Positions 3,818 to 36,438 of a stretch of DNA of 36,613 bases are shown here, piece by piece. The position numbers and the translations under genes are program-made. The notes beneath the pieces were generated by a model. It had not been told where the DNA came from. It saw nothing but the letters and a program-made list of their open reading frames with translations, and ran no database searches. Within the stretch, counting starts at the first letter, position 1. Every line of letters starts with the position of its first letter. Source of the DNA: Candidatus Bathyarchaeota archaeon (GTDB taxonomy: Archaea > Thermoproteota > Bathyarchaeia > TCS64); NCBI GenBank assembly GCA_013329615.1, contig DUKA01000095.1, positions 1 to 36,613 on the forward strand. Direction: 5' to 3'.

Positions 3818-4816
3818 CTACTTCTCGAGCCCGCTCATCTTCCTGATCTGCCTGCCGACCTTCTCGATCTCGAGCCCGTCGACCTCCTCCATGAGCGCCT
3901 TGAAGTTCTTGGAGCCGCCCTTGTACTCGGCCATCCAGTCCTTTGCGAACTTGCCGCTCTGGACATCCTTCAGCACCTTCCTCATGTTCTCCTCGACACG
4001 GTCGTCGACGATCACAGGCCCAACGGTGAGGCCGCCCCACTTCGCCGTGTCGCTCACGGCGCGGTACATGCCCCCGATGCCCGACGTATAGATCAAGTCA
4101 ACGATCAGCTTGAGCTCATTACAGACCTCAAAGTACGCCAACTCGGGCGGGTAACCCGCGTCGACCAACACCTTGAAGCCGCGGCGGATGAGCTGATCCG
4201 CGCCTCCGCAGAGGACAGCCTGCTCACCGAATAGGTCCTCCTCAGTCTCGTCCTTAAACGATGTCTCGAGGACACCCGCCTTGCCGCTACCAAGCGCCTT
4301 GGCGATCGCGAGGGCCGTCTGCAGCGCCTTGCCCGACGCGTCCTGCTGGACGCTGACGAGCGCCGGCACACCGAAACCCGCCTCATACTGACGGCGAAGC
4401 TCCGCGCCGGGGCTCTTCGGGGCGACCATGATGACGTCCACATCCTTCGGCGGCTTGATGGCACCGTAGAGGATGTTGAAGCCGTGTGCGAACTGGAGCG
4501 TCTTGCCCTTCTTCATAGCGAGGGCGACCTCCTCCTTCCACACCGTGGGCTGTGCCATGTCGGGGACAAGCATCAGCACGATGTCCCCCTTCTGCGCCGC
4601 CTCGAGGACCGTCGTCACCTTGACGCCGTCAGCCTCGGCCTTCTTCCAGCTCTTGCCACCCGGGCGGAGACCGACGACCACGTCGACCCCGCTGTCCTTC
4701 ATGTTAAGGGCCTGTGCCCTGCCCTGGCTTCCGTAGCCGATCACGGCGACGGTCTTACCCTTCAACGCCTTGTCGTCTATGTCCTTCTCGTGGTATACCT
4801 TCACCAATGCATTCAC
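3818..4816 (-). CDS. ilvC: Ketol-acid reductoisomerase (class I)
   Basis: 332 aa. N-terminal Rossmann motif VAVIGYGSQGRAQALN, and conserved C-terminal knotted-domain blocks (FGEQAVLCGG, ELAYFE). Follows ilvN with a 4-nt overlap. Confidence 0.97.
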   Translation of the reverse strand: MNALVKVYHEKDIDDKALKGKTVAVIGYGSQGRAQALNMKDSGVDVVVGLRPGGKSWKKAEADGVKVTTVLEAAQKGDIVLMLVPDMAQPTVWKEEVALAMKKGKTLQFAHGFNILYGAIKPPKDVDVIMVAPKSPGAELRRQYEAGFGVPALVSVQQDASGKALQTALAIAKALGSGKAGVLETSFKDETEEDLFGEQAVLCGGADQLIRRGFKVLVDAGYPPELAYFEVCNELKLIVDLIYTSGIGGMYRAVSDTAKWGGLTVGPVIVDDRVEENMRKVLKDVQSGKFAKDWMAEYKGGSKNFKALMEEVDGLEIEKVGRQIRKMSGLEK

Positions 4817-5313
4817 TTCTCCAGCTTGAGCCGCCCCTTCTCTATGGCGGTCACACCCGTCCTCGACACCTCCTCCACCCCTATCGGGGTCACGGCGGCG
4901 AGGAACGCGTCTATATCCGCAGACTCACCCGTGACCTCGGCTATAAGGTTGTCCGGCTCGATGTTCAGAATCAGCCCGTGGTAGTCGTTTACCAACTTCA
5001 ATGCCTCCTCCCTCGCCATCGGGTCGGTGGTCGTGAGCTTCACGAGTGCGAGCTCCCTGTTGACTGCACGGAGCGGGTCAAGGCGCTTCACCTCGATCAC
5101 GTCCACCATCTTGTCGAGCTGCTCGACCACCTGATTGACGCCCCGGGCGTCCGCCTGAACGACGATGGTTATCCTTACCGTGTCGTCGTCAAGCACCGTC
5201 CCCGCCGTGATGCTATGGATGTTGAAGTTCTTCCGCCTAAACATGTTGCTGATGTTGAACAGCACACCCGGCCTGTTCTCGACGAGGAACGCGACTACAT
5301 GCATCTCACTCAT
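4813..5313 (-). CDS. ilvN: Acetolactate synthase small (regulatory) subunit, copy 1
   Basis: 166 aa. N-terminal ACT domain (VVAFLVENRPGVLFNISNMFRRKNFNIHSIT) and an ilvN C-terminal domain. Sits directly downstream of ilvB. Confidence 0.93.
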   Translation of the reverse strand: MSEMHVVAFLVENRPGVLFNISNMFRRKNFNIHSITAGTVLDDDTVRITIVVQADARGVNQVVEQLDKMVDVIEVKRLDPLRAVNRELALVKLTTTDPMAREEALKLVNDYHGLILNIEPDNLIAEVTGESADIDAFLAAVTPIGVEEVSRTGVTAIEKGRLKLEK

Positions 5314-5315
5314 TT

Positions 5316-7007
5316 TTATGCCTCCAGCAGCGCGTCCTTGAGCCCCGCACCCGGCGGAACTATGGGGTACACGTTCTCCTCTGGGTCTATTGGTACATCG
5401 ATGACTGTCGAGACGTCGCTCTTTATGGCGCGCCTGACGGCGGCCTGGAAGCCTTCGAGGGTGTCGACCCTGACTCCCTCAGCCCCGTACGCCTCTGCGA
5501 GCTTCACCATGTCAGGGTTGCCCTTGAGCTTAACCGCGGAGTAGCGGTGGTCGAAGAAAAGGCGCTGCCACTGCGCGACCATGCCGAGCATGTGATTGTT
5601 GAGCACGACGACGACCACGGGGAGGTCCTCCTCGATGCTCGTCGCCATGCTGTTCTCGGTCATGCCGAAGCTTCCGTCGCCCGCGATGTCGACGACGGGG
5701 ACGTCGGGCCTCGCCGCCTTGACGCCTATCGCGGCTGGGAAGCCCCAGCCCATCGTGCCTAGGCCGCCGCTCGTGAAGAATGTGCGTGGGTCGTATGCGT
5801 CGTAGTGTAGCGCCGCCCACATCTGGCACTGGCCGACCTCCGTAGTGACTATCGCCTCGCGTGGGAGAGCGTTACGCAGCGTCTTGACGACGTCGGGTGC
5901 CCTGAGGTAGCCCTCCTTGTGCCCGTTGCCGGTGCCATTCATCTGGAGGCGGAACTCGGAGACCCTCTTGCTCCACTGGGAGCCGGCGTCGCCGCTGGCG
6001 CGTAGCTTGCTCACGTTGTAGAGCAGACCGCGCAGGCCGAGGCTGGCGTCTCCGACGACGCGTGTCACGGTCTCCACGTTCTTGTCTATCTCGCTCCTGT
6101 CGATGTCGAGGTGGATGACCTTCGCGTTTGGCGCGAAGCTCTTCACGGAGCCTGTCGTCCTGTCGCTGAGGCGCGCCCCGGCGATTAGGAGCACATCCGC
6201 CTCTGGGACGAGGTTGTTCGCCGCCTGCGTGCCATGCATGCCGCACAGGCCGAGGCTGAGCGGGTGGTCAGCGGGGAACGCGCCCTTGCCCATTAGTGTT
6301 GTTGCGGTTGGTGCCATAAGGTACTCGCATAGGGCGACCAGCTCGCGGCTCGCGCCGGAGTTGATGATGCCGCCGCCGGCGACCACGACGGGTCTCTGCG
6401 CCTTCGCTAGCAGGTTCGCCGCCCACTCCACCTCGCGCGGGTCGGGCTGGTAGTTGGGGTGGTAGCCCCTGAGCTTGACGGTCTCGGGGAAGCTGACGTC
6501 CTCCACATCCGTGGTGACGTCCTTGGGCAGGTCGACGAGGACCGCGCCCCGCCGCCCCGTCGAGGCGATCTGGAAGGCGGTCTTGACCGCTTTCGGTATC
6601 TCACTTGCCTTCCTGACCTGCATGTTGTACTTGGTGACGGAGGCGCTGCACCCGATGATGTCGACCTCCTGGAAGGCGTCTGTGCCGATGGTGGCGCGTG
6701 TGACCTGCCCCGTGAAGGCGACGACGGCACTCGAGTCGCTGTGTGCGGTAGCGATGCCGGTGACGACGTTTGTCGCGCCAGGTCCCGAGGTGGCGAGACA
6801 GACCCCGACTCCGCCCGTCGCGCGGGCGTAGCCGTCAGCCATGTGAGCGGCCCCCTGCTCGTGCCGCGCCAGGATGAACCTGAAGTCTCCGTTTAGTATC
6901 TCGTCGCAGAGCGGGATGACGACCCCGCCGGGGAGCCCGAAAACGTATTTGACACCCTCCAATTCGAGGGACTTCACGAATGCCTTTGTGCCAGCCATCT
7001 CAACCAT
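5316..7007 (-). CDS. ilvB: Acetolactate synthase large (catalytic) subunit, ThDP-dependent, copy 1
   Basis: ThDP-enzyme blocks are SGPGATN, GTDAFQE and GDGSFxM...NN. The track starts at TTG 7043. ATG 7007 (MVEMAGTKAFVKSL) has GGAGG 9 nt upstream and aligns residue-for-residue with the start of copy 2 (MTEMTGAEAYVKAL), so 7007 is preferred. Confidence 0.95.
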   Translation of the reverse strand: MVEMAGTKAFVKSLELEGVKYVFGLPGGVVIPLCDEILNGDFRFILARHEQGAAHMADGYARATGGVGVCLATSGPGATNVVTGIATAHSDSSAVVAFTGQVTRATIGTDAFQEVDIIGCSASVTKYNMQVRKASEIPKAVKTAFQIASTGRRGAVLVDLPKDVTTDVEDVSFPETVKLRGYHPNYQPDPREVEWAANLLAKAQRPVVVAGGGIINSGASRELVALCEYLMAPTATTLMGKGAFPADHPLSLGLCGMHGTQAANNLVPEADVLLIAGARLSDRTTGSVKSFAPNAKVIHLDIDRSEIDKNVETVTRVVGDASLGLRGLLYNVSKLRASGDAGSQWSKRVSEFRLQMNGTGNGHKEGYLRAPDVVKTLRNALPREAIVTTEVGQCQMWAALHYDAYDPRTFFTSGGLGTMGWGFPAAIGVKAARPDVPVVDIAGDGSFGMTENSMATSIEEDLPVVVVVLNNHMLGMVAQWQRLFFDHRYSAVKLKGNPDMVKLAEAYGAEGVRVDTLEGFQAAVRRAIKSDVSTVIDVPIDPEENVYPIVPPGAGLKDALLEA

Positions 7008-7233
7008 AGACATGCGCCTCCAAAGAGTAGAATCGGGTACCAAGCCATGCAGCTTGATCCTTTGCGGAACTCACTACAAACTGTTTAGACTCACTCGGGG
7101 TAGAGCTACCGAATAAAGCGATACCCCATCTACGCCACCCTCCACTCGGCGGCCATGATAAAGCGATACCCCATGACACCAATCTCCAAACGGTATGTAG
7201 GGGGAAGAGCGGCGGCACCGAATAAAAGGTTTG
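7008..7233 (-). promoter_or_regulatory. ilvB-1 promoter box plus long leader with two abutting mini-ORFs and hairpins
   Basis: Minus-sense CAAACCTTTTATTCG lies at 7233..7219. Mini-ORF 7174..7130 encodes MGYRFIMAAEWRVA. Mini-ORF 7129..7106 encodes MGYRFIR. A hairpin pairs GGGGTA with TACCCC (plus coordinates 7122-7127 / 7097-7102). A second hairpin is CAAGC-n6-GCTTG (7041-7056). GGAGG lies at 7021..7017. The architecture is mirrored upstream of ilvB-2. Confidence 0.5.
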
Positions 7234-7317
7234 TGAAAATATTCGGGACACACACATTTGGCTCAGTTACCCTTAACACCACCCACCGACCGATCCTACA
7301 CCGTAGAGTTGAGCCCA

Positions 7318-8538
7318 ATGAGTAAGATGACGCACCTAGAATGCTCGAAGTGTGGCACGCGCCACGACGCGGATCAGCTACAGACGGTCTGCAAGAAGTG
7401 CGGCAAGCCACTCTTCCCACGATACGACCTCGAGGCGGCGAAGGAGACGCTCACGAAGCGGGAACTCGTGGGCAGGGTCGCCTCGATGTGGAGGTACAGG
7501 GAGATACTCCCAGTCAGGAAGGCGGAGAACGTCGTCACCCTAGGCGAGGGCTGGACGCCACTCACCCCGACCCCGAAGCTCGGGGAGACGCTCGGCCTCA
7601 AGAACCTCAGGGTGAAGGACGAGGGTATCATCCCGACTGGCAGCTTCAAGGCGAGGGGCCTCAGCGCAGCCATAAGCAAGGCGAAGGAGCTAGGCGTCAA
7701 GCGCGTCGCCCTGCCCTCCGCCGGAAACGCGGCGGGCGCCATGGCCACCTACGGTGCACGCGCCGGCATGGAAGTCTACGTCTTCATGCCCGAGGACGCC
7801 CCCAACGTCAACGCAGTCGAATCCGACATCGTCGGCGCCAAGGTCGTCCTAGTCAAGGGACTCATAAGCGACGCCGGAAAACTCGTCAAAGACGGCACAC
7901 AAGAGATGGGCTGGTTCAGCGTCGCCACCCTAGGGGAGCCATACAGGGTCGAGGGAAAGAAGACCATGGGGCTCGAGGTCGCGGAGCAGCTCGACTGGAA
8001 GCTGCCCGACGTCATCATCTACCCCACCGGCGGAGGAACCGGCATCATCGGCATGTGGAAGGTCTTCGACGAACTCGAGGAGATGGGGTGGATAGGCAGC
8101 GAGCGCCCACGTATGGTGAGCGTTCAAGCGGAGGGCTGCAGTCCCGTCATCAAGGCGTATAGGGAGGGCAAGGAGGAGAGTGAGTTCTTCACCGGGGCGA
8201 ACACGGTCGCCGCCGGGCTGCGCGTCCCCAAGGCGCTCGGAGACTTCCTCATACTCAAGGCGGTCCGCGAGAGCGGGGGAGAAGCCATCTCCGTCACCGA
8301 CGACGAACTGATGGCGGATGTGCGCCTGATAAGCCGCCTAGAGGGCATATTCGCGTGCCCCGAGGGTGCAGCCACCATCTCCGCCCTACGTAAGATGGTA
8401 GAACAGGGCAAAGTCGACAGGGACGAACGCGTCGTACTCTTCAACACCGGCTCCGGGCTGAAGTACACCGACCTCTTCAAGGTCAAGGCGATCGTAGCCG
8501 ACCCGAAGAAGCCCTTCGACTACAACACCCTCAAGTAG
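7318..8538 (+). CDS. thrC: Threonine synthase (with N-terminal zinc-ribbon)
   Basis: PLP-lysine motif GSFKARG, N-terminal CSKCG...CKKCG zinc ribbon, and PALP-fold blocks. The track starts at TTG 7258. The first ATG (7318, MSKMTHLECSKCG) is preferred. Confidence 0.93.
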   Translation: MSKMTHLECSKCGTRHDADQLQTVCKKCGKPLFPRYDLEAAKETLTKRELVGRVASMWRYREILPVRKAENVVTLGEGWTPLTPTPKLGETLGLKNLRVKDEGIIPTGSFKARGLSAAISKAKELGVKRVALPSAGNAAGAMATYGARAGMEVYVFMPEDAPNVNAVESDIVGAKVVLVKGLISDAGKLVKDGTQEMGWFSVATLGEPYRVEGKKTMGLEVAEQLDWKLPDVIIYPTGGGTGIIGMWKVFDELEEMGWIGSERPRMVSVQAEGCSPVIKAYREGKEESEFFTGANTVAAGLRVPKALGDFLILKAVRESGGEAISVTDDELMADVRLISRLEGIFACPEGAATISALRKMVEQGKVDRDERVVLFNTGSGLKYTDLFKVKAIVADPKKPFDYNTLK

Positions 8539-14860: not shown

Positions 14861-15643
14861 CTACACGCCTCCTGCGATGAGCAGCTGGCTCAGCCATGCA
14901 ACGCTGATCGTGGACAGTATAGCGCCACCCACGACGAGGGTTATTACGAGTACCTTCGTTGCCTCGGCGGCGAAGACGCTGCCGAGCAGTGCCTTGTCCC
15001 CCGAGAGGTAGGCGCCTGTGACGAACATCTCCTCCCCGATGAGGACGTAGTCGCAGCTGGCGATCTGGAAGGGGAGGTTGACGCTGTCGGGCTGACCAGC
15101 TATCTGGAAGGCGCCGACGGCGTTACCCGTCTCGCTTAGTAGCAGTGCCTCGCTCCAGAATATGCCGAGCCAGAGGGCGGCGGCGGGGCGCTCCTCCTCC
15201 ATCCTGCCCATGCAGGCGCTAGCGTAGCCCCACCCCTTGCCGTAGTACTGGACGGCGGCGTCGCTGTACGCCTCGGGCTCACCCGCGACCGTGTAGGCGT
15301 CGCGCATGGTGTCCTGTGCCAGAGGCATCAACTCGGGGTACGCCGAGACGAAGGTAAGAGGCGTCTGCGCCGTCGCGGCTAGGTTCGCAACGTAACCGAG
15401 CGTGTTCAGCCCCGCCAAGTGGTAGGGCGCAGAGTCGCTGTTCAGGCCGCCCGAGCCGGAGCCCGTGCTGAATATGACGCCGCGCCCCATCTCGGCGCTG
15501 CGTCCCACGGCCTCCTTGATGACCTCGAGGCCGGGGATGCGGCGCAGCTCGCGGTACCGCCCCTTGCTCCCCGCGTACAGGGAGACGAGTGTGGCGGCGA
15601 GTATGAAGATTAGCAGGGCGAGGACGCCGATCCTCTGGATCAT
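14861..15643 (-). CDS. Bitopic membrane protein: N-terminal TM, ~200-aa non-membrane domain, C-terminal TM, 1st gene
   Basis: The track starts at GTG 15688 (275 aa). ATG 15643 (MIQRIGVLALLIFILAATLV..., 260 aa) begins directly at the TM helix and is preferred. The C-terminal TM is VLVITLVVGGAILSTISVAWL. Confidence 0.7.
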   Translation of the reverse strand: MIQRIGVLALLIFILAATLVSLYAGSKGRYRELRRIPGLEVIKEAVGRSAEMGRGVIFSTGSGSGGLNSDSAPYHLAGLNTLGYVANLAATAQTPLTFVSAYPELMPLAQDTMRDAYTVAGEPEAYSDAAVQYYGKGWGYASACMGRMEEERPAAALWLGIFWSEALLLSETGNAVGAFQIAGQPDSVNLPFQIASCDYVLIGEEMFVTGAYLSGDKALLGSVFAAEATKVLVITLVVGGAILSTISVAWLSQLLIAGGV

Positions 15644-15730
15644 GGCGCCGCGCCTCCGGTGCACCCGGCAACCAAGCGGCGAACCCACTGTGACTGGGGC
15701 TCGTTAGAATAACCGCTGGGTGAACGAGAG

Positions 15731-15771
15731 AAAAACTGATCTAGGAAACTGAGGCGTTCACAGATGAACGC
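15731..15771 (-). terminator. Possible terminator of the ADH gene: hairpin followed by an oligo-T tract (minus sense)
   Basis: GCGTTCA-caga-TGAACGC (15754-15771) forms a 7-bp stem. T5 on the minus strand lies at 15735..15731, downstream of the ADH stop (15854). Confidence 0.35.
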
Positions 15772-15853
15772 AATCCAACCCGGTGAAGGCAATCCCTCAC
15801 AATCATTCACTTCCGCAGCCAGAGGCAGGCTGATCCCATTTAAGGATTCTTAC

Positions 15854-16879
15854 TCAGGGGACGAAGACGACCTTGCAGCCGACGCGGCTCTTCGCCGCCT
15901 CGAACGCCTCACCCGCCTTCTCCAGGGATAGCCTGTGGGTAATCAGTTCCCCGACCTTGATGGCGCCGCTCTTCGCCAGTTTTATGGATTGGTCGAAGTT
16001 CTCCGGCTTGGCGTCGTATGCGCCCGCGAGCGTTATCTCGCGGCGTACGACCTGCGTCATGGGCACCTCGACTGGGCGTCCGAAGATGCCTATGACCGTG
16101 ATCCTGCCTCGTTTCTTCACTATTCCGGCCGCCTGTGCCACGGCGGGCGGCGCGCCCGTCGCCACGAAGGCGGTGTCGGCGCCCCTTCCGCCAGTCCTCT
16201 CCATCACTATGGCGGACAGGTCCTCCGTCTCGACGTTCACCGTCTCGAGCCCGAGCCCACCGGCTATCTTGAAGCGCTCGGTGTCGACGTTGACGCCGGT
16301 GACTATGACCTCGGCTCCGGCGAGGCGGAAGAGCTGGGCGCTGAAGAGGCCAATGGGGCCGCAGCCCTGAACGACGACGAAGTCGCCGAGCTGGATGGGG
16401 GTGCAGTCCTTCACGAAGTGAAGTGCGTTACTCAGCGGCTCGATGAGTGCGCCGGCGTCGTAGCCGAGTTCCTCGGGGAGCCGATGTAGGAGCTTGTAGG
16501 GCACTGCTATGTGCTCGGCCATTCCGCCGTCGACGTGTATGCCGAAGAGCGTGGAGGCGTCGCAGAGGTTCTCGTGCCCTGTGCGGCAGTAGGCGCAGAC
16601 GCCACACGCCTTGACTGACTCGGCGAGAATCCTGTCGCCCACCTTGTAGCCCTTTACTTCCTTCCCCACCTTGGCGACGCGCCCCGAGAACTCGTGCCCC
16701 ATGACGACGGGGAGCCTCATCTTCGAGTACGCCGGCGTGTAGTCGTATATGCCGAGGTCGCTGCCGCAGATTGCGGCCGTCTTCACCTCTATCAGGACTT
16801 CGTCGGGCTTTATCTTGGGCTTTGGGACCTCGGCGAACTCTACGCCGGGTGCGGGCTTGCTCTTGATGACGGCTCGCAT
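15854..16879 (-). CDS. Zinc-dependent alcohol dehydrogenase, MDR family (threonine/sorbitol dehydrogenase-like)
   Basis: GHEFSG catalytic-zinc motif, structural-zinc cluster CGVCAYCRTGHENLC, and NAD-binding VVQGCGPIGL. Confidence 0.9.
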   Translation of the reverse strand: MRAVIKSKPAPGVEFAEVPKPKIKPDEVLIEVKTAAICGSDLGIYDYTPAYSKMRLPVVMGHEFSGRVAKVGKEVKGYKVGDRILAESVKACGVCAYCRTGHENLCDASTLFGIHVDGGMAEHIAVPYKLLHRLPEELGYDAGALIEPLSNALHFVKDCTPIQLGDFVVVQGCGPIGLFSAQLFRLAGAEVIVTGVNVDTERFKIAGGLGLETVNVETEDLSAIVMERTGGRGADTAFVATGAPPAVAQAAGIVKKRGRITVIGIFGRPVEVPMTQVVRREITLAGAYDAKPENFDQSIKLAKSGAIKVGELITHRLSLEKAGEAFEAAKSRVGCKVVFVP

Positions 16880-16980
16880 CTGCTGGCACCTATGACCTGC
16901 ATGGGTCGCTGCGTCGGTTTTAACGCTTCGCCGCCGGGTAAGGCTCTAATGCTGACGGGGGGCCCATACTCCTGAAGCCT

Positions 16981-32961: not shown

Positions 32962-33159
32962 CAAACCTTTTTATTCGATACGCGGGTTGGAATAGCTCAC
33001 ATCCCGCAAGGGAGGATGGAACATGGGGTATTGCTTTGTCGAGCCCCCGAATGCGGGGGAAAGTTGAATGGGGAATCGTATTCTTAGTTAACAGATTCCC
33101 ATCCGAACCCAAGAACGTTGGATCATTGATCCAAGGAAAGATTCTGGAGGATACCATGC
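32962..33159 (+). promoter_or_regulatory. ilvB-2 promoter box plus long leader with two abutting mini-ORFs and hairpins
   Basis: CAAACCTTTTTATTCG lies at 32962-32977. Mini-ORF 33023-33067 encodes MGYCFVEPPNAGES. Mini-ORF 33068-33091 encodes MGNRILS. Hairpins are CCCCCG/CGGGGG (33044-33059) and GGGAATC/GATTCCC (33071-33100). The palindrome TTGGATCA-T-TGATCCAA lies at 33118-33134. GGAGG lies at 33146-33150, 9 nt before ATG 33160. Confidence 0.5.
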
Positions 33160-34842
33160 ATGACTGAGATGACCGGCGCCGAGGCGTACGTCAAGGCGCT
33201 AGAGAAGGAGGGCGTCAAATACCTCTTCGGGGTAACCGGCGCCGCAATCATACCCATCTGCGACGACCTGCTGAAGTCGAAGATTCGCTACATAGGTGGC
33301 GCCCACGAGCAGGGCTCAACCCACATGGCGGACGGCTACGCGCGCGTCTCCGGGCACCCCGGTGTCGTGCAGGTCACTAGCGGCCCAGGCGCGACGAACA
33401 TAGTCACAGGGCTCGCCACGGCGCAGCTCGATTCCTCGCCAGTTGTCGCCCTCACCGGGCAGGTCCCACTCAGCATGGTCGGCACAGACGCCTTCCAAGA
33501 GGTCGACATCATAGGCATCACCGCCTCCGTCACCAAGCACAACATACAGGTCATGGAGGCGGTGGAGATACCGCACGCCATCAAGTCGGCCTTCTACATC
33601 TCCTCGACCGGAAGGAAGGGCGCCGTCCTCGTGGATATCCCGAAGGACACCCAGACGGACAAGGCGGATATGGTCTTCCCGGATAAGGTCGAGTTCCGCG
33701 GCTACCACCCGAATATCGAGCCCAACTCGCAGGAGATGCACTGGGCAGCGACGCTCCTCGCAAAGGCGCGGAGACCAGTCATCATCGCGGGAGGCGGAGC
33801 AATCGCATCGGGAGCAACGATGGAACTCATCGAACTCGCCGAGATGCTGCAAGCCCCCGTAGCCACCAGCCTCATGGGGAAGGGGGCCATACCCAGCAAC
33901 CACCCACTCAGCCTCGGTCTCTGTGGGATGCATGGCCGCTGCGAGGCGAACTACATCGTCCCCGAGGCGGATGTCCTCCTAGTCGTTGGAGCACGCTTCA
34001 GCGATCGCACGACGGGCTCCCTCCGAGGCTTCGCCCCAAACGCACGCATAATTCACATCGACGTCGACCGCAGCGAGATAGACAAAAACGTCGACAGTAT
34101 CACACGCATAGTCGGAGACGCCAAACTCGCGATACGGGGCATCCGCGAGAAGGTCGCCCAGCAGAGGAACACGGGGCACACAGATGAGGACCTCGTGAAG
34201 AGGATCAAGGAATTCAAGGCACAGTCGGACACCCTCAACACGTCGCCACTCTCCGGCCCAGAAGTCATACGAGCGATAAGACGCGCCATGCCCCCAGACA
34301 GCATAGTCGTAACTGATGTTGGACAACACCAGATGTGGGCTGCGCAGCACTACGATGTCCGCGGACCCGGCGAGTTCTTCACGAGCGGCGGATTGGGCAC
34401 CATGGGCTGGGGGACGCCCGCAGCCATAGGCGCCAAGGCGGCGAGGCCCGACCTCCCCCTGTTGAACATCTCCGGCGACGGCAGCTTCGCCATGACCGAG
34501 AACAACCTAGCCATCGCCGTCGACGAGGGTTTCCCAGTCACCGTCGTGATCCTGAACAACGGCGTCCTCGGAATGGTCGCACAGTGGCAACGCCTCTTCT
34601 ACAACCGCAGATACAGCACGATACAACGCCCGAAGCACCCCGACTTCGTGAAACTAGCAGAGAGCTACGGGGCCACGGGGGTGAAGGCGGAGTCGACGAA
34701 GCAGATAGAGACCGCCATCAAGCGCAGCATCAAGGAGAAGCAGACCACCGTCATCGATGTCCCGATGGACCCTGAGGAAAACGTTTACCCCATGATCCCG
34801 CCGGGCATGGGGCTCAAGGACATCCTCCTAGGAGGCGCCTAA
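33160..34842 (+). CDS. ilvB: Acetolactate synthase large subunit, copy 2 (paralog of 5316..7007)
   Basis: 560 aa with the same ThDP-enzyme blocks. About two-thirds of residues are identical to copy 1 over an N-terminal ~146-aa stretch counted by hand. Confidence 0.95.
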   Translation: MTEMTGAEAYVKALEKEGVKYLFGVTGAAIIPICDDLLKSKIRYIGGAHEQGSTHMADGYARVSGHPGVVQVTSGPGATNIVTGLATAQLDSSPVVALTGQVPLSMVGTDAFQEVDIIGITASVTKHNIQVMEAVEIPHAIKSAFYISSTGRKGAVLVDIPKDTQTDKADMVFPDKVEFRGYHPNIEPNSQEMHWAATLLAKARRPVIIAGGGAIASGATMELIELAEMLQAPVATSLMGKGAIPSNHPLSLGLCGMHGRCEANYIVPEADVLLVVGARFSDRTTGSLRGFAPNARIIHIDVDRSEIDKNVDSITRIVGDAKLAIRGIREKVAQQRNTGHTDEDLVKRIKEFKAQSDTLNTSPLSGPEVIRAIRRAMPPDSIVVTDVGQHQMWAAQHYDVRGPGEFFTSGGLGTMGWGTPAAIGAKAARPDLPLLNISGDGSFAMTENNLAIAVDEGFPVTVVILNNGVLGMVAQWQRLFYNRRYSTIQRPKHPDFVKLAESYGATGVKAESTKQIETAIKRSIKEKQTTVIDVPMDPEENVYPMIPPGMGLKDILLGGA

Positions 34843-34843
34843 G

Positions 34844-35338
34844 ATGCCACTACACACGGTAAGCTTCCTCGTCGAGAACAAACCCGGCGTCCTCTTCAAG
34901 GTCGCCAACCTCTTCAGACGGCGCGGCTACAACATCCAGAGCCTCACAGTCGGCCCTGTCGAGGGAAGCCCCCTAAGCAGGATGACAGTAGTCGTCGACG
35001 CGGAGAGCCGCATCCTCAACCAGATAGTCGAGCAACTCGACAAGATGGTCGACGTGGTCAAGGTGAAGCGCCTAGACCCGCTAAGGACGCTGAGCAGGGA
35101 GCTGCTACTCATCAAGATGAAGACGTCGGACCCGATAGCGCGCATCGAGGCAGTGAACACCGTGAATGCCTACCATGGGCTCATCCTCGACGTAGATCCC
35201 GACATCCTAATCGCGGAGGTCACGGGGCCGACGGATGAGATAGACGAGTTTCTCAAGAGGATCGGCCCAATCGGTATCGAGGAGATGAGCAGGACGGGTG
35301 CCGCCGCCATAGAAAGGGGCAACGTCAAGCTCGCCTAA
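34844..35338 (+). CDS. ilvN: Acetolactate synthase small subunit, copy 2
   Basis: 164 aa. The ACT domain VSFLVENKPGVLFKVANLFRRRGYNIQSLT is colinear with copy 1. Starts 1 nt after the ilvB-2 stop. Confidence 0.93.
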   Translation: MPLHTVSFLVENKPGVLFKVANLFRRRGYNIQSLTVGPVEGSPLSRMTVVVDAESRILNQIVEQLDKMVDVVKVKRLDPLRTLSRELLLIKMKTSDPIARIEAVNTVNAYHGLILDVDPDILIAEVTGPTDEIDEFLKRIGPIGIEEMSRTGAAAIERGNVKLA

Positions 35339-35394: not shown

Positions 35395-36438
35395 ATGTGT
35401 CAACTTGTCGGGTACATCGGCGACAGACCCATAGCGCCGCTCGTCCTAAAGGCGCTGGAGCTGCAGGAGCCATACTTCGCGGCCCACGCCACGGGGATGG
35501 GTGTAATCAACGCGAAGGAAAAAGTACAGGTCGAGAAGGCGACCGGCCCCGTCGCCGCCGTGAAGAAGACGACGAAGATAACGAAGCTCAGGGGAAACAT
35601 CGGCATCGGCCATAGCAGGTACAGCGCCTACGCGCGCGAAGACCCCCGCTACGACGCCGACAACATGTGCCACCCCTTCACGAACGACGCAGGCGACGTC
35701 GCCATGATGCACAACGGCGACATAGCCAACTTCAAGGAGCACTGGGCGCGCCTCAAGCCGAGCCACAAGTTCAAGGGATACAACCCAGCCATCGACTGGA
35801 TAACCGACAGCGAGGTCGCCGTCCACATGATAGACGACGAGGTCAAGAAGGGCGACGGCTTCGACAAGGCACTACGCACTGTCATGCCCAAGCTCACAGG
35901 GCAGGTTCTCCTCTGCCTCATTAGCGAGGCGGAGCCCGAGACCATCTGGCTCGCCAACAGGTGGCAGCCCTGCTGCATAGGGATAGGTAAAGACGAGGTC
36001 ATCTGGACGAGCAGCCTCGCCGGCATGGACCCGATAAAGGACGAGTTGAAGAAGGTATACCAGCCGCCGAAGAACAGTCTCATCAAGCTGACCCGCGGCA
36101 AGGCTGAGGTCAGCGTCCTCGACCCCAACTACAAGGTCCACGACCTCAAGCTGAGCAAGAAGATTCTCAGGGAGGGGATCCTGAGCATCCTCGGCGTCGC
36201 GAATCTCGACTTCTTGCGCCTATGGTACGCACTCGACAAGACCCACTGGGCGAAAGCCTACGGCGTCGATCAGGAGCAGTGGAAGGCGCTCCGCCGCGAT
36301 TACGGCGTCAGCATAGTCAACCCCTTCATCGAGGTCCTCGACGAGCTCATCGAGGCAGGAAAGATCAAGAAGTGGATCGACTACCGCGCCGAGGGCTGCG
36401 ACGCGAAGACGCCCCGCTTCATGTATGGGCTCCCCTAG
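35395..36438 (+). CDS. Class-II (Ntn) glutamine amidotransferase domain protein with an unassigned ~115-aa C-terminal region
   Basis: Nucleophile Cys2 (MCQLVGYIG), GIGHSRYS, HPF and HNGDIANF blocks of the GATase-2 fold. The C-terminal part (from about residue 230) matches nothing I recognise. Confidence 0.8.
   Translation: MCQLVGYIGDRPIAPLVLKALELQEPYFAAHATGMGVINAKEKVQVEKATGPVAAVKKTTKITKLRGNIGIGHSRYSAYAREDPRYDADNMCHPFTNDAGDVAMMHNGDIANFKEHWARLKPSHKFKGYNPAIDWITDSEVAVHMIDDEVKKGDGFDKALRTVMPKLTGQVLLCLISEAEPETIWLANRWQPCCIGIGKDEVIWTSSLAGMDPIKDELKKVYQPPKNSLIKLTRGKAEVSVLDPNYKVHDLKLSKKILREGILSILGVANLDFLRLWYALDKTHWAKAYGVDQEQWKALRRDYGVSIVNPFIEVLDELIEAGKIKKWIDYRAEGCDAKTPRFMYGLP

Follow-up and report, generated by a model that had tools for sequence, protein, structure and literature searches.

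The window that we analysed is a stretch of 36,613 nucleotides (nt) from contig DUKA01000095.1 of an uncultured member of the Bathyarchaeia (a metagenome-assembled genome, or MAG, of 1.8 Mb in 240 contigs that is 84% complete), and our subject is the pair of leaders that precede its two ilvBN operons. The first operon (3818-7007, minus strand) contains ilvB-1 (7007-5316), ilvN-1 (5313-4813), and ilvC (4816-3818). The second operon (33160-35338, plus strand) contains ilvB-2 (33160-34842) and ilvN-2 (34844-35338), with no ilvC downstream. Each ilvB gene is preceded by the Shine-Dalgarno (SD) sequence GGAGG, followed by 9 nt and the ATG (33146-33162 for ilvB-2, with the SD at 33146-33150 and the ATG at 33160; 7021-7005 for ilvB-1, with the SD at 7021-7017 and the ATG at 7007), and this spacing is general. 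(A comparison of 12 orthologues indicates that ilvB-1 starts at this ATG, in the context [A/T]TG GTT GAG ATG, and not at the in-frame ATG at 7013.) An earlier note, made from the sequence of the window alone, had described the two upstream regions as unusually long 5' leaders with a common promoter box. As explained below, the length agrees with our prediction, but the picture of plain leaders is not borne out. Instead, each leader appears to be a translated control region whose effect would depend on the reading frame.

Each leader contains two in-phase copies of an 18-nt module, ATG GGG TAT YGY TTT NTY, and each copy begins a short open reading frame (mini-ORF). In the ilvB-2 leader (plus strand), an SD at 33010-33015 (GGGAGG) precedes module 1 (ATG GGG TAT TGC TTT GTC), which begins mini-ORF 1 (33023-33067, encoding MGYCFVEPPNAGES) and has Val at codon 6. 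Module 2 (ATG GGG AAT CGT ATT CTT) begins mini-ORF 2 (33068-33091, encoding MGNRILS) and has Ile and Leu at codons 5 and 6. In the ilvB-1 leader (minus strand), module 1 is ATG GGG TAT CGC TTT ATC (mini-ORF 1 at 7174-7130, encoding MGYRFIMAAEWRVA, with the SD GGAG at 7187-7184) and module 2 is ATG GGG TAT CGC TTT ATT (mini-ORF 2 at 7129-7106, encoding MGYRFIR); both have Ile at codon 6. In both leaders the second module begins 45 nt, or 15 codons, after the first, and across all of the tandem leaders that we collected from relatives, the spacing is 42 or 45 nt and hence always a multiple of 3. There is an SD-like sequence at positions -16 to -4 relative to the module ATG in 101 of 105 leaders, and frame 0, as read from that ATG, terminates after 7-19 codons. 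(The 3' end of the 16S rRNA, which would show the anti-SD of the source organism, is missing from the assembly.)

The sixth codon of the module matches the class of the gene that follows. The source genome has seven sites with the module core, and the ATG is present at 7/7: two before each ilvB, two before the threonine dehydratase gene ilvA, and one before valS. Across the relatives, codon 6 has the form A/G/C-U-Y, which encodes Ile, Val, or Leu, in 154/154 copies. It encodes Val before valS (19/19), Ile before ilvA (13/13), and Ile in leuA-type genes (32/32). In the ilvB leaders, it is Val or Ile in the first copy and Ile or (Ile-)Leu in the second, and some relatives have a third copy. (Three leaders of single-copy ilvB genes from other genera, L014, L017, and L161, have three in-phase modules, with Val, Ile-Leu, and Ile as the sensors; their first copy has AGC at codon 4, and they share a different conserved mid-leader hairpin, ACGC..GGCC-loop-GGCC..GCGT.) Thus, as in bacterial attenuators, a short SD-led ORF with codons for the end products of the pathway lies in front of the biosynthetic genes.

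The rest of the module is constrained as well. Codon 5 is UUU in all 137 copies that encode Phe at this position, and never UUC. UUU is a rare codon in the source genome, where it makes up 9% of Phe codons, and UUA, onto which the slip proposed below would land, makes up just 2% of Leu codons. Position 9 of the module is never G. A G at this position would create an AUG in the +1 frame, so its absence fits avoidance of a +1 start, which would mean that the +1 frame is entered conditionally. The positions that do vary, namely 6 (U/A), 9 (C/U/A), and 15 (A/G), are synonymous in the +1 frame (GGU/GGA, AUH, and UUR), and in frame 0 the same positions give radical changes (Tyr/Asn and Arg/Cys/Ser).

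This last pattern would be expected if the +1 frame were entered constitutively or by some other route, either because the ribosome slips within the G run (so that AUG GGG U is read as M-G and then AUY) or by initiation at the +1 AUH. The leader would then amount to a recoded upstream ORF with no amino-acid sensor and with the frame-0 mini-ORFs as by-products. The +1 reading, which begins G-I-(A/V)-L, also suits this explanation. However, it does not explain why codon 6 is restricted to Y-ending codons for Ile, Val, and Leu or why those codons match the class of the gene; it requires ribosomes to decode UUA, which makes up 2% of Leu codons, in the +1 frame; and it conflicts with the absence of G at position 9 and with the location of the AUH, which is 15-18 nt from the SD. 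Overall, we think that entry into the +1 frame by these routes is quite improbable. (With regard to a tRNA with a four-base CCCC anticodon, the 27 tRNAs that were detected in the incomplete MAG included nothing unusual and are uninformative, and a tRNA scan of the window itself gave no hits.)

However it might be entered, the +1 frame is open. In ilvB-2, it runs from module 1 to a TGA that lies 8 nt into the gene (33024-33167, plus strand, ending in the overlap ATGACTGA), and in ilvB-1, it likewise runs from module 1 to a TGA that lies 8 nt into the gene (7173-7000, minus strand, ending in the overlap ATGGTTGA). Among 73 leaders of ilvB, ilvA, and valS, the +1 frame is open up to the main start in 71, as compared to 0/73 for frame 0 and 0/73 for frame +2. 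By chance, about 4.9 open frames would be expected (using 6%, from the stop frequency of the other frames). When we grouped the leaders into clusters that are dissimilar in sequence, 42 of 43 clusters had an open +1 frame (binomial tail, about 1e-48). There is one clear exception: in an ilvB-1 orthologue (L186, G012:C3), the +1 frame has a stop 31 nt past the module ATG. The leader may have decayed here, the stop may be peculiar to a strain, or the assembly may be wrong.

The place where the +1 frame stops is also informative. Relative to the first base of the main start, the stop is at +1 (ATGA) in 8 leaders and at +5 (ATGNNTGA) in 40 leaders, or else it is 10-17 nt after that base. Both copies in the window are of the ATGNNTGA type (33160-33167 and 7007-7000). 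Thus, 48 of the 73 leaders have an ATGA or ATGNNTGA overlap, which corresponds to -4 or -8. Such overlaps are common and efficient in archaeal termination-reinitiation, whose efficiency is near zero by about 20 nt (PMC10666635; PMC6728339). The stops in these 48 leaders lie as near to the start as this kind of coupling needs.

Relatives also have leuA-type genes, and in these it is the +1 frame that encodes the enzyme. The catalytic DTTLRDG motif begins 49 nt after the module ATG in 31 of 32 such genes. In 17 of the 32, there is no in-frame ATG, GTG, or TTG between the preceding stop codon and DTTLRDG, and the in-frame starts of the others do not lie at a conserved position. A real frame change would mean that the annotated 5' ends of leuA-type genes are systematically wrong in these genomes. 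In the source genome, we found no leuA (no tblastn match at E = 1e-20, in an assembly that is 84% complete).

We propose that these leaders respond to a shortage of branched-chain amino acids by a change of frame. When codon 6 is short of its charged tRNA, a ribosome would wait with tRNA-Phe on the rare UUU, and it would then slip forward by one base, from UUU to UUR, into the +1 frame. It would translate this frame through the leader, across a conserved hairpin, and up to the start of ilvB, whose translation would be switched on by termination-reinitiation and by the opening of the SD region. When branched-chain aminoacyl-tRNAs are plentiful, the ribosome would instead complete the mini-ORF of 14 or 7 codons, and little ilvB would be made. 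The ilvB-2 leader would sense Val (module 1) as well as Ile and Leu (module 2), and the ilvB-1 leader would sense Ile twice. We favor a slip at UUU because it explains the codon 6 rule, the invariant rare UUU, and the missing G at position 9. Judging from the sequence comparisons, we give a slip at the hungry codon (UUU-NUY) followed by coupling into the gene a probability of roughly 0.6.

A broader claim would be that a whole branched-chain regulon of the Bathyarchaeia (the two ilvBN operons, ilvA, valS, and leuA) is controlled by programmed +1 frameshifting at a hungry codon, with codon 6 as the single-codon sensor, UUU as the slip site, and entry of the shifted ribosome into the enzyme gene as the output. 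It would be the first natural starvation-induced regulatory frameshift and also the first amino-acid sensor of the leader-peptide type in archaea. We consider the chances that all of this holds to be about even. Much work has been done on hungry-codon frameshifting in starved E. coli, and no natural product that is specific to starvation is known (Atkins et al. 2016 review, PMC5009743); if the frame change is true, it would fill this gap in the frameshifting literature, which lacks a natural regulatory use. Similarly, little is known about how archaea adjust the expression of biosynthetic genes to the supply of amino acids, and this locus offers a compact candidate that is defined by its sequence: a promoter, an SD, an 18-nt module, and a +1 connector frame, which are conserved across many Bathyarchaeia, an abundant uncultured lineage of sediments. 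Our literature searches for archaeal ilv leader peptides, for archaeal +1 frameshifting in these genes, and for attenuation in Bathyarchaeia turned up nothing specific, and we found no description of leader-peptide attenuation or of T-box control in archaea in the searchable literature. For genome annotation, the locus is a warning that when a compact archaeal genome has a long and supposedly "untranslated" leader, ribosomes may be reading it in a frame other than the expected one.

The proposed frame change has a close precedent in bacteria. The prfB gene, which encodes release factor 2, is autoregulated by a programmed +1 frameshift at the site AGG GGG UAU CUU UGA C. The module resembles this site in several respects. 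There is a short frame-0 ORF directly after the start, with a slowly decoded A-site codon as the sensor; the P-site codon ends in U, is read by G-U wobble, and could re-pair one base further on (the base after UUU gives UUR or UUC); a G-rich, SD-like run followed by UAU lies upstream; and in leuA-type genes, the product (LeuA) is in the +1 frame, is contiguous with the frame-0 ORF, and lacks a start of its own. The differences are that a sense codon (Ile, Val, or Leu) takes the place of the stop codon as the sensor; that before ilvB, ilvA, and valS the +1 frame is not the enzyme but a mere connector that ends in a stop-start overlap; and that the host is an archaeon with a regulon in place of a single autoregulated gene, in which the frameshift is predicted just from sequence.

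Several observations weigh against our proposal. First, in prfB the SD-like stimulator is 3 nt upstream of the shift codon, but the GGGG of the module, which is invariant, is 6 nt before the UUU. Second, tRNA-Phe would re-pair with UUA or UUG at just 2 of 3 positions. Third, the synonymous variation of positions 6, 9, and 15 in the +1 frame also agrees with slippage at the G run. Fourth, the +1 peptide is no better conserved as a protein than are the peptides from the other frames, so that it is only the openness of the frame that argues for its translation, and we do not claim a small-protein function. Fifth, the folding energy of each whole leader is no better than that of shuffled sequences (z = -0.7 and -0.3). 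Finally, the predicted pairing of the SDs of the main genes is moderate (mean 0.64) and does not exceed that of the first SD. Because the main genes have strong SDs of their own and this pairing is moderate, masking of the SD is unsupported, and ilvB might be translated independently of the leader.

The local hairpins are real. Between the modules of the ilvB-2 leader lies CCCCCG-AATG-CGGGGG (33044-33059, plus strand), whose stem is invariant and whose loop is variable across 15 orthologues; its 3' arm is SD-like for mini-ORF 2. In ilvB-1, a hairpin (GCCGCC at 7153-7148 and GGTGGC at 7139-7134, minus strand) lies within mini-ORF 1. A second hairpin lies before the SD of each gene. The earlier note had listed these SD-proximal hairpins, a GATTCT, and the GGAGG-9 nt-ATG arrangement as further colinear blocks, and all of them are present. 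The palindrome before the ilvB-2 SD (TTGGATCATTGATCCAA, that is, TTGGATCA-T-TGATCCAA, at 33118-33134, plus strand) is found in most orthologues, with a few compensatory variants such as GGATT/AATCC, which give it partial support. The hairpin before CGATTC and the SD of ilvB-1, GGATCAAGC/tgcatg/GCTTGGTACC, extends over 7060-7036 (minus strand), slightly wider than the 7041-7060 that had been noted, and it has clearly compensatory stems in other genomes (GGATCTATCC/GGATGGATCC, GGGCCAAGC/GCTTGGTCCC, and GGGACCCCACC/GGGTCGGGTCTC, for example). The GATTCT block (33140-33145 in ilvB-2 and 7034-7029 in ilvB-1) did not hold up as a homology: CGATTC is conserved only among the ilvB-1 orthologues and the ilvB-2 copy of GATTCT is not conserved, so this match is a coincidence. 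The hairpins may act by pausing or gating ribosomes or by shielding the SD.

Two other pairings came up in this analysis. At the predicted 5' end of the ilvB-2 transcript (32999-33020), CAUCCC can pair with the SD region of mini-ORF 1, GGGAGGAUG; in orthologues, the loop of this stem is variable and there is one compensatory change. The equivalent stem in ilvB-1 is AUACC/GGUGU and leaves the SD in the loop. RNAalifold also suggested that GGGUAU pairs over a long range with AUGCCU at the start of ilvB-2; we rejected this pairing because it shows no covariation, is mismatched in the window (AUGACU), and is impossible for ilvB-1.

The conserved hairpins and sensor codons are also what one would expect of the main rival to our proposal, namely a stalling leader peptide without any frame change. 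A ribosome that pauses at codon 6 of mini-ORF 1 would cover the 5' arm of the C5/G5 hairpin and thereby alter which downstream SD or start is exposed, which would be translational attenuation of the ermC type. The +1 frame would then be open by accident or for some other purpose. The second ATG has an SD-like sequence in the 3' arm of hairpin 1, which fits well with such a switch. Nevertheless, stalling explains neither why 71 of 73 leaders are open in the +1 frame only, nor the ATGA and ATGNNTGA overlaps, nor the leuA-type genes that lie in the +1 frame without a conserved start, nor the invariant rare UUU. Furthermore, we found no convincing mutually exclusive fold that reaches the SD of ilvB. 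For these reasons, we view stalling alone as unlikely, and we continue to favor a slip at UUU.

Transcription attenuation, as in the bacterial ilv operons, also seems not to fit. The ilv attenuators (ivbL and ilvL in E. coli and the ilvBNC leader of Corynebacterium) resemble the module leaders in that a translated leader with end-product codons precedes genes for acetolactate synthase, in that these codons are multivalent (Val, Ile, and Leu), and in that the operons for different isozymes have different sets of codons. In contrast to those systems, there is one sensor codon per module and not a run of them, the output is probably translational, and there is neither a terminator/antiterminator pair nor an oligo-T tract. 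Runs of at least 5 T were present in just 3 of the 73 leaders, so a terminator of the archaeal type, which transcription attenuation would require, is lacking.

In its logic, the regulon is closer to the T-box of Firmicutes, where one cis element with a single specifier codon controls both biosynthetic genes and the matching tRNA synthetase (here, valS with Val). This likeness raises the possibility that the repeat of 17-18 nt is a structured RNA of the riboswitch or T-box type that binds uncharged tRNA, or else a DNA operator; the promoter box might likewise include the site of a regulator, such as the TrmB-family protein that is encoded beside ilvB-2. The covarying hairpins would fit an RNA element, and an operator would fit two properties of the box that are described below: its flanks, CAAACC and TCG, are conserved beyond a generic TATA, and its core occurs at just four sites in the genome. 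On the other hand, the leaders contain no T-box sequence or Stem I, and searches of Rfam with both leaders, at the gathering threshold and at E values of up to 10, gave nothing relevant and no match to the T-box. Because the leaders as a whole fold like shuffled sequences, a riboswitch-like reading is unsupported. The motif is always on the sense strand and at a fixed distance from the TATA element, and the ATG, the SD, the spacing in multiples of 3, the placement of the stops, and the open +1 frame are features of reading frames that neither an operator nor a tRNA-binding RNA would need. The codon is part of an ORF that has an SD, and its reader is presumably a ribosome and not a free tRNA. 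A structured RNA or operator is thus the least probable of the explanations that we considered.

The module leaders can also be compared to two phenomena that involve the ribosome. As in the archaeal termination-reinitiation systems of Huber et al. (2019, 2023; PMC6728339, PMC10666635), the upstream frame usually ends in a -4 or -8 overlap with the gene. Unlike in those systems, the upstream frame could be reached only after a change of frame, and the sequence of its protein is not conserved. As in the hungry-codon frameshifting of starved E. coli, an empty A site at a limiting codon would allow the P-site tRNA to slip. However, in E. coli this is an error or a laboratory phenomenon, and here we propose a conserved and programmed regulator.

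The earlier note had matched a box at 32962-32977 (plus strand) with one at 7233-7219 (minus strand) and had proposed that it is the promoter, with a transcription factor B recognition element (BRE) and a TATA element. The match is real. The ilvB-2 box, CAAACCTTTTTATTCG, consists of CAAACC, TTTTTATT, and CG, and the ilvB-1 box, CAAACCTTTTATTCG, consists of CAAACC, TTTTATT, and CG; they differ by a single T. With 2 mismatches allowed, 0.01 chance matches to the box would be expected in the window, and the pattern CAAACCTTTTT?ATTCG (that is, CAAACCTTTT(T)ATTCG) is found at the two ilvB sites and nowhere else in the 1.8-Mb assembly. The spacing that had been reported is also correct: 47 nt separate the end of the T/A core (32975) from the ATG of the first mini-ORF (33023) in ilvB-2, and 46 nt separate them (7221 and 7174) in ilvB-1. 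When we aligned the upstream regions across relatives, the box was kept in 15 ilvB-2 orthologues and 12 ilvB-1 orthologues while the DNA immediately upstream of it varied. The AAAnC-TTTTTAT core is invariant in these orthologues, and both copies have an A-rich BRE directly before the A/T-rich element. More broadly, in 93 of 102 leaders from four gene classes, a TATA-like hexamer ends 34-51 nt (median 45) before the module ATG. The shared box is therefore most probably the BRE/TATA core promoter of both ilvBN operons.

Across the genome, the distances from such hexamers to the starts of long ORFs are most commonly 24 and 30 nt, which corresponds to transcripts that are leaderless or nearly so. 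The two ilvB starts, at 185 and 214 nt from their own hexamers, are unusually distant by this standard. Given the genome-wide peak at 24 nt, we predict that transcription starts about 24-25 nt downstream of the box, near A32999 for ilvB-2 (25 nt past the end of the hexamer) and near A7198 or A7196 for ilvB-1. Both of the predicted start sites lie within a block, (C/T)ACAT(C/A)CC, that is common to the two leaders and is conserved in orthologues. In ilvB-2 this putative initiator is (T/C)CACATCCC (32997-33005, plus strand), and in ilvB-1 it is CTACATACC (7199-7192, minus strand); a conserved YA-containing block lies 23-29 nt past the box. The leaders would then be about 161 nt for ilvB-2 and 190 nt for ilvB-1, in line with the 160-190 nt that had been suggested.

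Alternatively, the box might not be the promoter of ilvB: transcription could start near ilvB, and the box could serve a small separate transcript or a divergent gene. On the ilvB-1 side, there is indeed a second A/T element for the divergent gene thrC just 8 bp away. Yet a TATA-like hexamer is present in the interval 18-50 nt ahead of the main start in just 3 of 73 leaders; the 70 without one include both copies in the window. There is no oligo-T terminator between the module and the gene, and the +1 frame physically links the two; genes of the leuA type begin with the module. These observations make it very unlikely that the box is not the ilvB promoter. (The A/T element for thrC merits description. 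The TATA of ilvB-1, at 7227-7221 on the minus strand, is back to back with AAAATATT at 7236-7243 on the plus strand, which is 74 nt before thrC, a threonine synthase gene with its ATG at 7318. This arrangement, at 7219-7245, would form a compact bidirectional promoter, and the TTTTCAC that adjoins the ilvB-1 box is conserved in ilvB-1 orthologues.)

Did the two operons inherit their leaders from a common ancestor? The earlier note had concluded that the duplication which produced the operons included the leader. In a maximum-likelihood tree of 43 IlvB proteins, ilvB-1 and ilvB-2 form separate clades, each with members from the source genus and from a second genus of the family. Outside of these clades lie the single-copy ilvB genes from five other genera and from another family. 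That these already have a leader with tandem modules implies that the leader is older than the duplication. Most simply, and most likely, it was copied together with the gene. However, because the module is an element of a whole regulon and is also found before ilvA and valS, and with leuA in relatives, its presence at both ilvB genes is not in itself evidence of co-duplication.

The likeness of the boxes needs a further explanation. Near-identical boxes are limited to the source genus, and in the sister genus, which has both paralogues, the boxes differ. Their identity thus probably reflects a shared constraint in addition to ancestry. The core CAAACCTTTT occurs at just four sites in the genome, which are before ilvB-1, ilvB-2, trpB2, and one other gene. 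Since it is also found before trpB2 and since the boxes of the sister genus differ, the two boxes are probably alike because both are close to the BRE/TATA consensus or because they have a factor in common. Once the operons had been duplicated, the ilvB-1 of the source genus switched its first sensor codon from Val to Ile, which suggests that the two isozyme operons divided the signals between them.

The module is widespread in the Bathyarchaeia. Every one of the genomes that we sampled from the source's family has it (24/24). Of the 41 genomes that we searched, the source genome included, 30 have it, and a reversed control pattern was almost absent from these 41. In a sample from across the class, we found it in 88 of 201 genomes, with 43/43 in the family of the source, and 22/27 and 7/9 in two others. 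Of 112 non-redundant loci, 47 are before ilvB, 32 are leuA/citramalate-synthase-type, 19 are before valS, and 7 are before ilvA. We dismissed a match to the motif in Heimdallarchaeota as due to chance because the other features were missing, and the bacterial matches in a scan of the collection were the expected chance background.

These distributions hint at where the module came from. If module 2 of the ilvB-2 leader (33068-33105) is read in the +1 frame, it gives WGIVFLVNRFP, which resembles the LeuA N-terminus WGIALFNRFP (from leuA-type loci such as L090 and L079). Outside of the source's family, most genomes have a single copy of the module, and it is leuA-type. Together, these observations raise the possibility of a leuA origin: the leader modules may have arisen by copying of the 5' end of leuA to sites in front of other genes.

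The trpB2 gene of the source genome, mentioned above, has a related layout. At locus L208 (ORF region 15497-16925 on the minus strand of contig C70), this gene, which is TrpB-like by NCBIfam (701 bits), is preceded by the promoter box GCAAACCTTTTAAC, an SD, and a mini-ORF, ATG AGA GTG TAT CAA CCG GAC TGG ... TAG, that has a single Trp codon. The frame of the enzyme (LILDEEHIPKFWYN...) is displaced by -1 from that of the mini-ORF and lacks a canonical in-frame start. The same layout is found in three congeners, and distant relatives have an ordinary ATG. L208 may be a Trp-sensing relative of the ilv module, though the direction of its frame change differs.

Finally, within the window, the gene after ilvN-2 (35395-36438) is a glutamine amidotransferase with an N-terminal domain of the GlmS/PurF type. 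It takes the place of ilvC, which is found in the ilvB-1 operon only.

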